DNA from: a virus
Virus record (IMG/VR): IMGVR_UViG_3300043774_001004
Span: 1 to 64,000 of that record
DNA: 64,000 bases
Reading direction: 5' to 3' (one strand)
The translations under genes were made by a program, and so were the position numbers. This document shows, piece after piece, positions 39,475-63,769 of this stretch (position 1 is its first letter; each line of letters opens with the position of its first letter). The notes below the pieces were generated by a model. That model worked only from the letters and a program-made list of their open reading frames with translations, searched no databases and was not told the DNA's origin.

Positions 39475-42400
39475 ATGCCGATACCTTTAAATGAGCCACC
39501 ACAGAGGATAACGAATGAACCGCCTACAGGGGTCATTAAGTTAACCAGAGAGCTTCAATTACTGAAGCCTGTGCTCACGTCTGATGGTGTCTTTACTGAT
39601 AGAATTACTCTTAACAATACATTTCTTGTTCTTGACTGGAATAACTGGCCTGAACTTGAATACGACGTCGTCGATGATCTTTATCAAATTAGAATAGGGG
39701 CATCAGGCACTAGTGGTACTGGTGGAATAGGAGCAGCTATCACAATTTTAGACGAGGGTAATCCTGTTACAACTAATGTCAGCTCAATCAATTTTGTAGG
39801 TGATATAATTACAGCACAGTCCCTAGATCCTCTCGATCCAACTGCAGTTACTGTAACTGTTACTACTCCTGCCCAAACCGAATTTTATTCATGTTCACCA
39901 TGGCAGATTTTAAGTACAAACAATACTCCGGCACTTCTTTCTACAAATAACGGCCGTGCAAATCTTAACGATAATACACCGCAATTTGTCAACACTCTAT
40001 ATTTACATGTAGATGACTTTAACGGTACAGATCAGGCTACATGGATAGATTCATGGCAGGACAGTGGAGCATATGGCTATATTAGTTTAACTGGTATTAC
40101 AACTGGCGCATACCTAAATGGTTATGTCACTGGTACTTTCCCAGGCACTAACACAAGAGAGATATACATAAATGTACTTTCTTATAGTTCAACTGATTTT
40201 ATAAATGGTGAAAAACTAGTTGTTTGTTTTACACAAAACGGTGCAAATGGTACATCTGGTTCAAGTGGTACATCAGGAACTAGCGGAGCAACATACGGCA
40301 CCAGTGGCTCATCTGGTACTAGAGGCACTAGTGGTACCAGCGGTAAAGGTACATCTGGCTCATCAGGTTCATCTGGCTCATCGGGTTCAAGTGGTACTAT
40401 AGGTACTTCAGGTACGTCTGGTACTACATTTGGATCTAGTGGTTTAGACGGTACAGCAGGTACAAGCGGTACTACTGGTATAGATGGTTCAAGCGGTACA
40501 TCTGGTCAAAATGGTACCAGCGGATCATCCGGATCCTCAGGTTCATCAGGAACCAGCGGTGTTACAGGTTCATCAGGAACCAGCGGTGTTACAGGTTCAT
40601 CAGGAACCAGCGGTGTTAATGGAACAAGTGGTATAGACGGTTCTAGTGGAACCAGTGGAGCTAATGGCACTAGAGGTACAAGTGGTACAAGTGGCAATAC
40701 AGGTTCTAGTGGAACTAGTGGAGCTAATGGCACTAGAGGTACAAGCGGTTTATCAGGAACGAGCGGTAATGATGGTTTAAATGGTTTACCGGGTACTTCA
40801 GGAACAAGTGGTTCAAGTGGCACTAGAGGGACATCTGGATTATCAGGTTCAAATGGAACCAGTGGTGTAACAGGTTCGTCAGGAACAAGTGGTGTTAATG
40901 GTTCTTCAGGAACAAGTGGTGCCAATGGCACAAGTGGTTCAAGCGGCACTAGAGGAACATCTGGATCTTCAGGTTCATCGGGAACAAGTGGTGTAACAGG
41001 TTCATCAGGAACCAGTGGTGCCAATGGCTCATCAGGAACCAGTGGTGCCAATGGCTCATCAGGAACCAGTGGTGCCAATGGCACTAGAGGCTCATCTGGA
41101 TCTTCAGGTTCATCAGGAACAAGTGGTAATACAGGTTCATCAGGAACAAGCGGTAATAATGGCTCAAATGGTACTAGAGGTTCAAGTGGCTCAAGCGGTA
41201 CTAGTGGTGTAGGTACAAGTGGTACTTCAGGTAATAATGGCTCAAATGGTACTAGAGGCTCATCTGGCTCAAGTGGTACATCAGGTCCTGCAGGTTCTTC
41301 AGGTACAAGCGGTGCTGATGGTAATAATGGCTCAAATGGTACTAGAGGTTCAAGTGGCTCAAGCGGTACTAGTGGTGTAGGTACAAGTGGTACTTCAGGT
41401 AATAATGGCTCAAATGGTACTAGAGGCTCATCTGGGTCAAGTGGTACATCAGGTCCTGCAGGTTCAAGCGGTACAAGCGGTGCTGATGGTAATAATGGCT
41501 CAAATGGTACTAGAGGTTCAAGTGGCTCAAGCGGTACTTCAGGTAATGATGGTTTAAATGGTACATCTGGTAGTAGCGGTTCGTCTGGAACTAGAGGTTC
41601 TTCAGGTACATCTGGTAGTAGCGGTTCGTCTGGCTCATCTGGCTCATCTGGCTCATCTGGTTCTTCAGGCACTTCAGGTACTAGAGGTACTTCAGGTACA
41701 TCTGGACAAGACGGAGCAGCTGCACCGGGTTGCTATGAGTATTTCTTAAAACTTAACGGTGCCACTGGAGGAAGCCCTTCAGCTCTGACTCCAGGTGAGG
41801 CATATCAAAACGTAGCAGCTGCTGCATCCATTACGGAATTTGCTATATACGAAATTGATGCTAACTCTCTAGATATTTCTTCTTTTCTAAATACTATAAC
41901 AGCAGGTTGTACAATTACAGTAACTGGTCAGACAAGTGGAGCAACTCTTACTGCAACCATTGGTTCAGTAAACATCATATCAGGTACAATATATCGTTTT
42001 ACAGGTTTAACTGTTATTGCATCTAGTGGTACTTTTATAACAGCGAATGTCGGTACAGAATTAGCATGGGTTTGTTTCTCATGTGCCGGTACAAGCGGTA
42101 ATAGCGGTACTTCAGGTACAAGTGCTGTAGGTACTTCGGGCACATCAGGAGCTAATGGTCTTTCTTTAGTTACTACAACGACTGGAGGAGGTGTAGTAGA
42201 AGTTAGCCCAGGTTGTTTTCAAAATACGGGTGCTGCAGGTTTTGGTAACTATGTCTATAGCGACCAGGCCTACACAAATGCATATATTTCAGTTACTATA
42301 TCAAATACTGGAGTATATGCAACAGGCTTAAGTACTAATCAAATACCCGTAGTTACATCACCTCCAGTAGCAGGTAATTATGACTATTGGATCTTCTTTG

Positions 42401-63169: not shown

Positions 63170-63769
63170 ATGGATTACAATGTTTTTTCTATACTTAAAG
63201 CCGAGTCTGATGCTATACTTAATATACCATTAGATAATCCCTATGAGGAGGCAATTGATCTTATACAAAATAGAGTTCACTTCAATAATGGTAAACTCAT
63301 TTGTTCAGGCATGGGTAAAGCTGGGCAGATTGCCCTAAACATGGCCACTACTTTTAGTTCAACTGGAACCTGTGCAGTATATCTCCATCCAAGTGAAGCA
63401 CAACATGGTGACCTAGGTATACTTAGAGATAATGATGTACTTCTCTTAATTTCAAATTCAGGTAAGACCAGAGAAATTGTTGAGCTTATTACTCTGGCCA
63501 AAAATTTACATCCAAAAATTCCTATTATTTGTATTACAAAAGATCCAGATAGCCCATTGGCTAAAGGTTCTAATCTTGTTTTACATACTGGGTTTACAAA
63601 GGAGATCTGTCCATTGGGTCTTACGCCAACTGTATCTACTACAGTTATGACCGTCATTGGTGATATACTTGTTACACTTATGATGGAACGTATACAATTC
63701 ACAAAAGAAGATTATGCACTCAGACACCACTCAGGGTATCTTAATTTAAAGGCAAGAGGTCTAGTATAA
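63170..63769 (+). CDS. kdsD: Arabinose-5-phosphate isomerase (KdsD/GutQ family, SIS-only)
   Basis: GMGKAG.IA, STGT...HP.EA.HGDLG, SNSG.T.E, E.CP.GLTPT.ST, HH.G.L. Confidence 0.88.
   Translation: MDYNVFSILKAESDAILNIPLDNPYEEAIDLIQNRVHFNNGKLICSGMGKAGQIALNMATTFSSTGTCAVYLHPSEAQHGDLGILRDNDVLLLISNSGKTREIVELITLAKNLHPKIPIICITKDPDSPLAKGSNLVLHTGFTKEICPLGLTPTVSTTVMTVIGDILVTLMMERIQFTKEDYALRHHSGYLNLKARGLV

Follow-up and report, generated by a model that had tools for sequence, protein, structure and literature searches.

Two features that meet in the locus described here are already known in kind: the glycosylation of virions by virus-encoded enzymes, and the O-glycosylation of proteins by BAHT-type enzymes (BAHT, bacterial autotransporter heptosyltransferase) encoded next to their substrates. 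Mycobacteriophage glycosyltransferases (GTs) reportedly O-glycosylate the phages' own structural proteins, as Freeman et al. (cited in PMC12619734) are said to have described in Cell Host Microbe in 2023 together with a proposed role of the sugars as a shield against recognition; to our knowledge, experimental proof of virion glycosylation by phage enzymes exists for mycobacteriophages only. BAHT enzymes have been reported as cytoplasmic protein O-glycosyltransferases that are encoded beside their substrate, and they are known for protein acceptors only (PMC4358343). In TibC of Escherichia coli, Arg286 contacts N1 of the adenine, explaining the specificity for ADP, and the corresponding Ala mutant loses or largely loses activity, while Pro300 determines the stereoselectivity for heptose (PMC4358343). 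Here, we analyze a stretch of 64,000 nucleotides of viral DNA (the window), i.e., the first 64 kb of the 89,841-bp IMG/VR contig IMGVR_UViG_3300043774_001004 (CheckV completeness ~42%), in which a gene for a long Ser/Thr-rich collagen-like fiber is followed by a gene for a BAHT homolog within an island of glycan genes.

Our analysis supports, with confidence only a little above even, a model whereby the window would encode a phage-run cytoplasmic protein O-glycosylation system consisting of two adjoining modules. The model draws on gene content, homology, conserved catalytic residues and recurrent gene neighborhoods.

Results

A BAHT homolog and a Ser/Thr-rich collagen-like fiber

The BAHT homolog is a 757-amino acid (aa) protein with a β-sandwich (residues 1-~95), a retaining-type GT-A fold (~95-380) and a BAHT domain (415-754). 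The BAHT domain scores 284.5 bits on the equivalog TIGR04414, "autotransporter strand-loop-strand O-heptosyltransferase" (cut-off 200), and matches the TibC structures 4rb4/4rap in phmmer with an E-value of 1e-61 over 336 residues. We mapped the functional residues described for the TibC structure (PMC4358343) on an alignment of 36 phage representatives and found that the catalytic base D110 of TibC corresponds to D484 and that T226, K230 and W305 correspond to T599, K603 and W674, all of which are invariant in 36/36 sequences. The same holds for the iron-finger residues C709/C712/C726/C738 (C339/C342/C358/C370 in TibC), while the position of TibC Pro300 is occupied by Gly or Ser in the phage sequences. 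Judged by its sequence, the homolog is a true member of the TibC/Aah family with an intact catalytic core. A PDB sequence search with the N-terminal half of the fusion returned nothing significant (glycogenin, E~1), and the GT-A part was resolved by fold instead, with BoGT6a, glycogenin, UGGT and GlyE as the best matches of an AlphaFold model (target template modeling (TM) scores 0.5-0.64).

BAHT homologs at 47-63% identity, nearer than TibC, are present on at least 122 IMG/VR contigs, and 4581 clusters of the metagenome protein database match at E ≤ 1e-10 (proteins of 187-595 aa). Four records of GenBank phages carry BAHT, three from uncultured huge phages and one from a cultured phage, the Microcystis phage Mel-JY01. 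PHROGs has no family for the BAHT domain, and a pattern-limited scan of bacterial genomes returned only four loci, from which we conclude nothing on bacterial distribution.

The fiber contains 192 G-X-Y triplets in runs of at least five, the longest run being 87. Thr or Ser occupies X in 141 triplets and Y in 129, giving ~270 Ser/Thr within triplets, and the commonest triplets are GTS (63) and GSS (51). The whole protein has 46 Pro and 13 Lys, of which just 5 Pro and 2 Lys are in X/Y positions; with 33% Ser+Thr (contig median 11%), it is the only strongly Ser/Thr-rich protein of the 89.8-kb contig. An N-terminal domain precedes ~170 GTS/GSS-type triplets at residues 256-749, followed by two shorter triplet runs and a Cys-rich C-terminal domain of 180 aa. 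In addition, a Cys-flanked module of ~100 aa is found in three diverged copies between the collagen runs (~140-240, 783-870 and 1119-1214; pairwise E 3e-9 to 2e-5). A sister phage (L006), the TerL of which is 75% identical and which is syntenic with the window phage from position 35430 onward, has a collagen-like open reading frame (ORF) at the same position with 61% identity to residues 9-72 of the fiber; the N-terminus is conserved and the remainder varies, as in fibers. Matches to the PHROG "tail fiber" span the collagen repeats only. The protein is putatively part of the virion.

BAHT genes recur beside GTS-type fibers

We analyzed 80 BAHT loci with 10-kb flanks, which were dereplicated at <85% BAHT identity to 35 clusters, and scored as a GTS-type fiber any collagen-like ORF within 10 kb with ≥16 triplets and a Ser/Thr share of ≥60% in the X and Y positions. 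Such a fiber was present in 17/35 clusters, nearly always of the GTSGSSG type seen in the window, and in 6 of these 17 the gap between fiber and BAHT gene is <100 bp; poly-Thr proteins are encoded near BAHT in two further clusters. In contrast, a GTS fiber was found at 0/37 TerL loci of related phages (Fisher 3e-7, not phylogeny-corrected) and at 1/80 loci around Maf-like genes, which are themselves glycan islands (Fisher 8e-10, likewise uncorrected for phylogeny); the sole positive among the latter is the sister phage, which also bears BAHT.

The pairing is kept at 36% BAHT identity in a 34.6-kb contig (L203, JAAEPJ010000383.1) that encodes a 1017-aa GTS fiber and a 771-aa BAHT fusion. This entry is filed as "MAG: bacterium" (MAG, metagenome-assembled genome) and may represent phage DNA that was binned with a bacterium. 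In Mel-JY01, a Ser-rich annotated "structural protein" (WWT39289.1) is encoded directly upstream of a 1226-aa GT4-FkbM-BAHT fusion. In the converse test, 78 loci picked by fiber-triplet similarity contained BAHT in 12 cases and GT4 in 19. The BAHT frequency in this set greatly exceeds that across 2.9 million viral contigs, although the enzyme is well short of obligatory.

Gene order recurs as well. The succession of fiber, GT4-GT25, FkbM and GT-A-BAHT is repeated in two loci (L056, L074), the three-enzyme block stands beside GTS- or Ser/Thr-rich ORFs in three others (L007, L028, L039), and the sister phage has, in the same syntenic place, a shorter fiber with the shared N-terminus and a single GT4/N-domain/BAHT fusion. 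A 1106-aa BAHT fusion and a GT4 gene are also present on a contig labeled as a giant-virus MAG (L048, IMGVR_UViG_GVMAG-S-404869-56_000001), the end of which truncates a GXY ORF. At five loci (L035, L044, L059, L063, L065), a protein of 2300-2450 aa with ~20% Ser/Thr and no collagen repeats is encoded directly 5' of a GT4-methyltransferase fusion and BAHT; these proteins are a possible alternative type of acceptor.

A preliminary description of the window, made from its sequence, had pictured a fiber with hundreds of Ser/Thr in triplets followed by about 20 co-oriented genes, among them a TibC-like enzyme with a four-Cys iron finger, and had proposed to look for co-occurrence of GTS-repeat genes and BAHT homologs across phage genomes. 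These points are borne out by the 192 triplets and 22 plus-strand ORFs, by the TIGR04414 and TibC matches (284.5 bits against a cut-off of 200; E 1e-61) with all four Cys aligned, and by the 17/35 clusters compared to 1/80 and 0/37 controls. All of the domains that it named were recovered with Pfam, NCBIfam and PHROGs, or by fold in the case of the two GT-A halves.

The island consists of two modules

Between 43838 and 63769 there are 22 ORFs, each on the plus strand, which overlap or lie 0-37 bp apart, and the string of glycan genes reaches to ~68.1 kb of the contig, past the end of the window (Table 1). Domains were called with Pfam, NCBIfam and PHROGs, which account for six methyltransferase domains and two Sulfotransfer_2 domains, and two AlphaFold models were used for fusions left open by sequence. 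The island is composed of two modules, A (39475-52103) and B (52100 to ~68.1 kb of the contig).

Module A is held together by fusions observed elsewhere. Homologs of the GT4-GT25 protein are fused to BAHT at several other phage loci, FkbM is fused to GT4 and BAHT in one locus (L012) and in Mel-JY01, and 10 or more other phage clusters have BAHT joined to the N-terminal domain of the 566-aa protein. Because BAHT is fused elsewhere to GT4, FkbM and this N-domain, the module A enzymes are tied to one pathway. PDB sequence searches gave no significant match for the GT4-GT25 protein, the FkbM protein or the N-domain family of the 566/352-aa proteins, and look-ups in the ESM Atlas returned only sub-0.9 leads (GT-A-like viral families) that were not used as evidence.

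A simple Kyte-Doolittle hydropathy scan predicted two or more membrane segments in 0/29 island proteins, and no Pfam or NCBIfam match to a flippase, polymerase, ligase or initiating lipid-carrier phosphoglycosyltransferase was found in the island. The lack of lipid-carrier initiation, flippase, polymerase, ligase and polytopic proteins fits with sequential glycosylation in the cytoplasm before lysis.

The 80 loci around homologs of the Maf-like protein of module B frequently contain relatives of other downstream genes, i.e., of the 83-aa gene (24/80), GT10 (19/80), GT25 (18/80), DegT-like (15/80), Gmd (15/80), KdsB (12/80), KdsD (11/80) and cupin (10/80) genes. At one of these loci (L213), the genes run from Maf-like through GT25, sulfotransferase, methyltransferase, GT11, GT10 and cupin, and then methyltransferase, DegT-like, Gmd, KdsD, KdsA and KdsB. 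Among large records with module-B-type genes, BAHT is present anywhere in 1/18 and GTS-type repeats in 6/17 scanned. Thus, the region from 52100 onward is a portable cassette, the acceptor of which is not set by the fiber. Because module B exists elsewhere alone, its acceptor in the window is indicated by contiguity only; given one uninterrupted gene string, joint action of the two modules on the fiber is plausible. Near-pure Ser open frames of 150-240 aa lie ~3 kb 5' of homologs of the GT-A half of the Maf-like protein at eight loci (L238, L240, L247, L253, L254, L262, L265, L269) and may be further Ser-rich acceptors or frame artifacts of simple repeats.

Table 1 Fiber gene, glycan genes of modules A and B, and their continuation on the contig. 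Positions are those of the window unless marked as contig positions.
Feature	Position	Strand	Basis or remark
Collagen-like fiber, 1441 aa, proposed acceptor (module A)	39475..43800	+	Pfam Collagen (PF01391), E 4e-67
GT4 (GT-B) + GT25 two-domain glycosyltransferase (module A)	43838..45502	+	Domain match; homologs in 58/80 BAHT loci
N-domain without family + FkbM-family methyltransferase (module A)	45471..47048	+	Domain match; homologs in 34/80 BAHT loci
757-aa GT-A + BAHT fusion (module A)	47035..49308	+	TIGR04414, PDB TibC match, AlphaFold fold match
352-aa protein, no family assigned; N-domain paralogous to that of next gene (module A)	49311..50369	+	Sequence comparison
566-aa protein; N-domain 7-350, methyltransferase 355-495 (module A)	50403..52103	+	Domain match
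83-aa protein, first gene of module B	52100..52351	+	Precedes Maf/CstII-like gene in 24/80 related loci
Class-I glutamine amidotransferase / peptidase C26-like	52361..52999	+	Domain match; absent from the preliminary description
CstII/Maf-like (CMP-ulosonate transferase type) + retaining GT-A	52953..54518	+	Profile, PHROG, fold
Sulfotransferase, Sulfotransfer_2	54515..55120	+	Domain match
GT25 glycosyltransferase	55130..55798	+	Domain match
Sulfotransferase, Sulfotransfer_2	55800..56390	+	Domain match
Methyltransf_24 / TylF-like sugar O-methyltransferase	56380..56922	+	Domain match
GT11-like, alpha-1,2-fucosyltransferase family	56885..57796	+	26.2 bits, cut-off 23.9
GT10-like, alpha-1,3/4-fucosyltransferase family, C-terminal domain	57684..58646	+	Domain match
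WbuC-family cupin	58670..59080	+	39 bits, slightly below cut-off 42
Class-I S-adenosylmethionine methyltransferase, Methyltransf_11	59077..59631	+	Domain match
GT25 glycosyltransferase	59633..60424	+	Domain match
Methyltransf_24 / TylF-like methyltransferase	60439..60996	+	Domain match
Methyltransf_23 methyltransferase	61003..61572	+	Domain match
Short DegT/LegC-like module, 200 aa	61565..62167	+	Domain match
GDP-mannose 4,6-dehydratase (Gmd)	62176..63168	+	Pfam E 2e-115
KdsD/KpsF arabinose-5-phosphate isomerase, SIS only, no CBS pair	63170..63769	+	164 bits, below full-length cut-offs
GIY-YIG/NUMOD homing endonuclease, between kdsD and kdsA	contig 63818-64492 (window 63818..64000)	+	Domain match
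KdsA	contig 64622-65395		345 bits, cut-off 242
KdsB	contig 65392-66159		221 bits, cut-off 193
DUF2061 protein	contig 66128-66607		
Adenosine phosphosulfate (APS) kinase + HAD tail	contig 66607-67560		APS kinase 286 bits, cut-off 163
Adenylyltransferase-fold protein, 188 aa	contig 67562-68128		

Sugar-supply genes and individual proteins of module B

The N-terminal domain of the Maf/CstII-like protein matches CstII in a family-profile comparison (E 1.5e-4 over ~210 residues) and phrog_4603, "alpha-2,3-sialyltransferase" (6e-25), and its Pfam MptE-like score is 22 bits, below the cut-off of 34.6. The C-terminal half is a GT-A domain resembling GT6, GT8 and A64R of the chlorovirus PBCV-1 according to an AlphaFold model, the fold search being dominated by this C-terminal domain.

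At least three of the four steps to CMP-Kdo (Kdo, 3-deoxy-D-manno-octulosonic acid) would be covered by KdsA, KdsB and the SIS-only KdsD, the latter scoring below full-length cut-offs; as for KdsC, the APS kinase carries a HAD tail, which gave no informative match when considered as KdsC or GmhB. The gene for the GIY-YIG endonuclease looks like a mobile insertion that splits the genes of the Kdo pathway. The presence of APS kinase makes a supply of 3'-phosphoadenosine 5'-phosphosulfate (PAPS) probable, fitting the two sulfotransferases; an ATP sulfurylase was not recognized, and APS kinase represents half of this supply. The 188-aa nucleotidyltransferase was considered as HldC or ATP sulfurylase, and only NMNAT/PPAT-type matches were obtained; this small adenylyltransferase-fold enzyme might make APS, to which the tests run gave no support. 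The trio of DUF2061 protein, APS kinase and small adenylyltransferase-fold protein recurs near BAHT or GTS-fiber genes at four loci (L058, L152, L155, L197).

No GDP-fucose synthase (Fcl/GMER) was found on the 89.8-kb contig, which represents ~42% of the genome. Because Gmd is the sole gene of the short-chain dehydrogenase/reductase (SDR)/epimerase family, the genes seen do not suffice for making GDP-fucose; the combination of Gmd, DegT-like protein and cupin suggests that some other GDP-6-deoxy or amino sugar may be produced. The short DegT-like module is a conserved unit rather than a fragment, as it is fused within a GT4-DegT-FkbM protein at another locus (L020).

A PfkB kinase with heptose-7-phosphate kinase as its top PDB match (E 6e-7) adjoins BAHT in 2/35 phage clusters and not in the window phage. 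At the level of individual loci, PfkB-type kinases of 247-249 aa with a PDB match to D-β-D-heptose 7-phosphate kinase lie ~380 bp after a stand-alone BAHT gene in L044, L054, L055, L065, L066 and L069. This adjacency is a weak hint that heptose may be used in at least some lineages. ORFs of ~450-480 aa upstream of BAHT (L029, L043, L048, L039) were considered as HldE and rejected, having no NCBIfam match.

Two small proteins at the start of module B deserve mention. The tail of the 83-aa protein is acidic and Thr/Glu-rich, and the protein could be a partner, carrier or acceptor of the Maf/CstII-like enzyme. The C26/amidotransferase has a weak likeness (44.7 bits, cut-off 250) to the gamma-glutamyl-CDP-amidate hydrolase of the Campylobacter O-methyl-phosphoramidate pathway; amidotransferase, APS-kinase-type kinase and small nucleotidyltransferase are the same three enzyme types as in that pathway, which is only a lead, as the kinase scores as a genuine APS kinase.

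The source phage

The window derives from a large, uncultured contractile-tailed phage with genes for TerL (8630-10462), tail sheath (10495-13674) and baseplate hub (14604-15614). Its TerL is nearest to those of uncultured huge phages (47.8%), followed by Sphingomonas phage PAU (34%) and Tenacibaculum phage PTm1 (33%). Metagenomes of lake water, other freshwater and estuaries, sampled in many studies, contain near-identical DNA, while a megablast search of 43838-52103 against GenBank phages gave no match.

A RATATATA motif lies 20-40 bp 5' of several gene starts, including that of the tail sheath gene and one island site before 58670; its positions in the window are 5974, 10461, 13733, 25855, 34623, 36628, 58646 and 63795. 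As a candidate late-promoter motif it is not enriched overall (10 plus-strand matches vs ~12 expected by a hand estimate from base composition), and 7 of the 10 plus-strand matches are directly upstream of starts.

Discussion

In our model of cytoplasmic protein O-glycosylation, for which the enzymatic steps, the acceptor and the sugar are predictions throughout, the BAHT domain would prime Ser/Thr hydroxyls of the fiber triplets in the cytoplasm with either heptose, as in TibC, or a sugar carried on another nucleotide. Extension of the glycan would next fall to the GT4, GT25 and GT-A domains, and capping to the methyltransferases of FkbM and other types. Module B would supply CMP-Kdo (KdsD, KdsA, KdsB), a derivative of a GDP-6-deoxyhexose (Gmd, DegT-like, cupin) and probably PAPS. 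Its enzymes, which all appear to be soluble (CstII/Maf-like+GT-A, two GT25, GT10, GT11, two sulfotransferases and four methyltransferases), would add Kdo via the CstII/Maf-like domain together with hexoses, deoxyhexoses, sulfate and methyl groups, resulting in an acidic, sulfated and methylated glycan that plausibly elaborates the fiber glycan. The fiber would thus be glycosylated in sequence in the cytoplasm and subsequently assembled into virions prior to lysis.

Glycosylated Thr is reported to stabilize the triple helix in a tube-worm cuticle collagen. It is tempting to extend the model such that, in aquatic jumbo phages, a phage-specific TibC branch with an altered nucleotide pocket primes hundreds of Ser/Thr on a proline-poor collagen-like fiber and, in the window phage, a portable Kdo/6-deoxyhexose/sulfate/methyl cassette extends them into a mucin-like acidic coat, which would stabilize the triple helix and serve as an adhesive or decoy for glycan-binding surface proteins of the host; we consider this wider proposal speculative and rather improbable. 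If true, the acidic coat of the fiber would be the prokaryotic-virus counterpart of the glycosylated fibrils of giant viruses.

Several observations speak against an O-glycosylation system acting on the fiber. No GTS-type ORF lies within 10 kb in 18/35 BAHT clusters, and two near-complete phage records (79% and 86%) contain many GTS repeats and no BAHT. The control loci compared with the BAHT clusters were neither dereplicated nor region-matched, and the counts are not phylogenetically independent. The fiber gene is ~19 kb downstream of the tail block (10-20 kb), amid DNA-metabolism genes, and the BAHT substrates known so far are β-helical autotransporter passengers rather than collagen triple helices (PMC4358343). 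TibC R286 corresponds to V655 and is V, I, L, T or A, and never Arg, in the 36 phage representatives, and no heptose-pathway gene was recognized on the 89.8-kb contig. With respect to module B, BAHT, GT4 and GTS fiber are each found in just 1/80 Maf-like loci; L213 has this module in the order of the window, at 38-82% identity, with nothing fiber-like upstream; and two genomes that are at least 96% complete contain module-B-type genes and neither BAHT nor GTS repeats. The case is built by inference from sequence, and no glycan has been observed on any such fiber.

With no adenine-reading Arg anywhere in the phage clade, it is uncertain which sugar is donated, and the designation heptosyltransferase is unproven. 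The preliminary description had read the island as one system that builds a heptose-primed, fucosylated glycan and ends at 63769. Of this reading, the BAHT homology and the pairing with the fiber stand, while the remainder needs revision: module B is found elsewhere with neither BAHT nor a GTS fiber close by, the residue corresponding to Arg286 is Val here and never Arg in phage homologs, GDP-fucose synthase is absent from the contig, i.e., from ~42% of the genome, and the island continues to ~68.1 kb of the contig.

We have weighed other functions for the island. The enzymes, above all those of module B, could rebuild the lipopolysaccharide (LPS) core, capsule or surface glycoproteins of the host, for example to block superinfection or mask receptors, with the fiber as a mere neighbor. 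GT9-, GT25-, Kdo-, GT10- and GT11-type enzymes are classical LPS/lipooligosaccharide enzymes that are soluble or peripheral at the cytoplasmic face of the membrane, the PHROGs class of the GT4 and GT25 relatives is "moron, auxiliary metabolic gene and host takeover", and many phages have module B but neither BAHT nor a GTS fiber in its vicinity, making host-envelope remodeling a real option for this module. As an account of the island, we nevertheless regard it as unlikely, because the BAHT family is known for protein acceptors only and tracks GTS fibers in phages, because the island encodes no lipid-carrier initiating transferase, flippase, polymerase or ligase, and because the entire string is co-oriented and contiguous with the fiber gene.

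Alternatively, the enzymes might act on other proteins, such as capsid, tail tube or decoration proteins, as in mycobacteriophages, or host proteins, and the adjacency of fiber and BAHT might reflect a shared variable accessory region. Half of the BAHT clusters have no GTS ORF nearby, and several have the 2300-2450-aa proteins with ~20% Ser/Thr or poly-Thr linkers upstream; baseplate, tail and endosialidase-chaperone domains are among the neighbors of BAHT, and the 83-aa protein travels with the Maf-like gene (24/80 Maf-like loci). Against this stand the striking specificity of the GTSGSSG repeat type across clusters at 36-63% BAHT identity, six of which have fiber and enzyme immediately adjacent, and the near absence of GTS fibers from controls drawn from the same kind of phages, and we find such a displacement of the acceptor quite improbable.

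Part of the island might also put sugars on hydroxymethylated pyrimidines of the phage DNA, as two putative thymidylate-synthase-fold paralogs at 30841-33431 are candidate dCMP-hydroxymethylase-like enzymes and PMC12619734 cites glycosyltransferases with which phages hypermodify DNA by adding diverse glycans. We consider this highly improbable: DNA glucosyltransferase families gave no match among the island enzymes, BAHT enzymes modify proteins, the thymidylate-synthase-fold genes lie 6 kb upstream in a separate gene block, and a gene set with sulfotransferases, fucosyltransferase-like enzymes, six methyltransferase domains and a Kdo pathway goes far beyond any DNA glycan known to us. Finally, the loss of the TibC ligand R286 could mean that the BAHT homolog is inactive or non-catalytic and the fiber unglycosylated, an idea that is very hard to reconcile with the invariant catalytic base, phosphate/sugar ligands and iron finger in 36 diverged phage sequences, with the consistently small or hydrophobic residue at the R286 position, a pattern more like a selected change of the entire clade than like decay, and with the 4581 metagenome clusters at E ≤ 1e-10 (187-595 aa).

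If fibers are glycosylated as our model of cytoplasmic O-glycosylation proposes, phages of lakes and oceans would display complex, possibly sulfated acidic glycans on their surface, with effects on adsorption, host range, grazing, aggregation and immune/lectin recognition, and collagen-like triplets would become a new class of BAHT acceptor, perhaps along with a new donor. An enzyme family known only from pathogen adhesins appears tied to a specific fiber type in mostly aquatic samples. The two-module build offers a clean experimental handle, i.e., A alone, B alone or both, and the culturable Microcystis phage Mel-JY01 is an experimental entry point.

Our literature search returned no paper that links BAHT enzymes with phages and none on Mel-JY01, and phage virion glycosylation was cited for mycobacteriophages only. 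In the latter, the acceptors are reportedly the C-terminal tails of capsid and tail-tube subunits and a few simple GTs are involved, whereas the window phage has a collagen-like fiber, a BAHT-type enzyme and a sugar factory of >20 genes with Kdo, sulfate and methyl functions. BclA of the Bacillus anthracis exosporium is likewise a collagen-like filament with O-glycosylated Thr in its triplets and sugar genes near the structural gene. Its glycan is a methylated, amino-sugar-capped oligosaccharide (PMC6222408). BclA differs in that its triplets are mostly GPT, the glycan begins with N-acetylgalactosamine and rhamnose, and no BAHT is involved. The islands of the serine-rich repeat adhesins in Gram-positive cocci similarly combine a Ser-rich protein with cytoplasmic GT-B/GT-A enzymes that prime and extend (GtfA/B of GT4; GT8 enzymes, e.g., GlyE), and GlyE is among the fold matches of the GT-A half of the 757-aa protein; however, we found no sequence relation to GtfA, the phage acceptor is collagen-like and there is no accessory Sec system. 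Maf and CstII of Campylobacter and Helicobacter (PDB 1ro7, 2drj, 5mu5) are CMP-nonulosonate transferases, while the phage cassette encodes a CMP-Kdo pathway; the phage protein scores below curated cut-offs, its activated sugar would be Kdo rather than a nonulosonate, and there is no flagellin.

The glycan clusters of giant viruses (A64R of the chlorovirus PBCV-1, mimivirus fibrils; PMC4691112) include their own sugar-nucleotide synthesis with Gmd and soluble GTs. Their glycans are built independently of the host secretory machinery, and A64R is among the best fold matches of the GT-A domain of the Maf-like protein; giant viruses differ in having eukaryotic hosts, major capsid protein or fibrils as acceptors, and no BAHT. 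The closest likeness is to the E. coli pairs TibC-TibA and Aah-AIDA-I (TIGR04414; PDB 4rap/4rb4; PMC4358343), with which the phage enzyme shares homology, the catalytic Asp, the ligands and the iron finger as well as the setting of a soluble cytoplasmic enzyme beside a long repetitive Ser/Thr-rich surface protein as the presumed acceptor. The acceptor there is an autotransporter passenger and here would be a collagen-like G-X-Y fiber, no autotransporter being nearby. Moreover, TibC adds heptose to Ser (PMC4358343), whereas the phage BAHT is fused to GT-A and accompanied by extending GTs and methyltransferases, and, having Val in place of Arg286, its use of ADP-heptose is unproven; the ring-shaped dodecamer is a feature of TibC. 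What is new in comparison with these systems is the juxtaposition of both modules in a ~28.6-kb string in which they are yet separable, and the clade-wide loss of the adenine-reading Arg.

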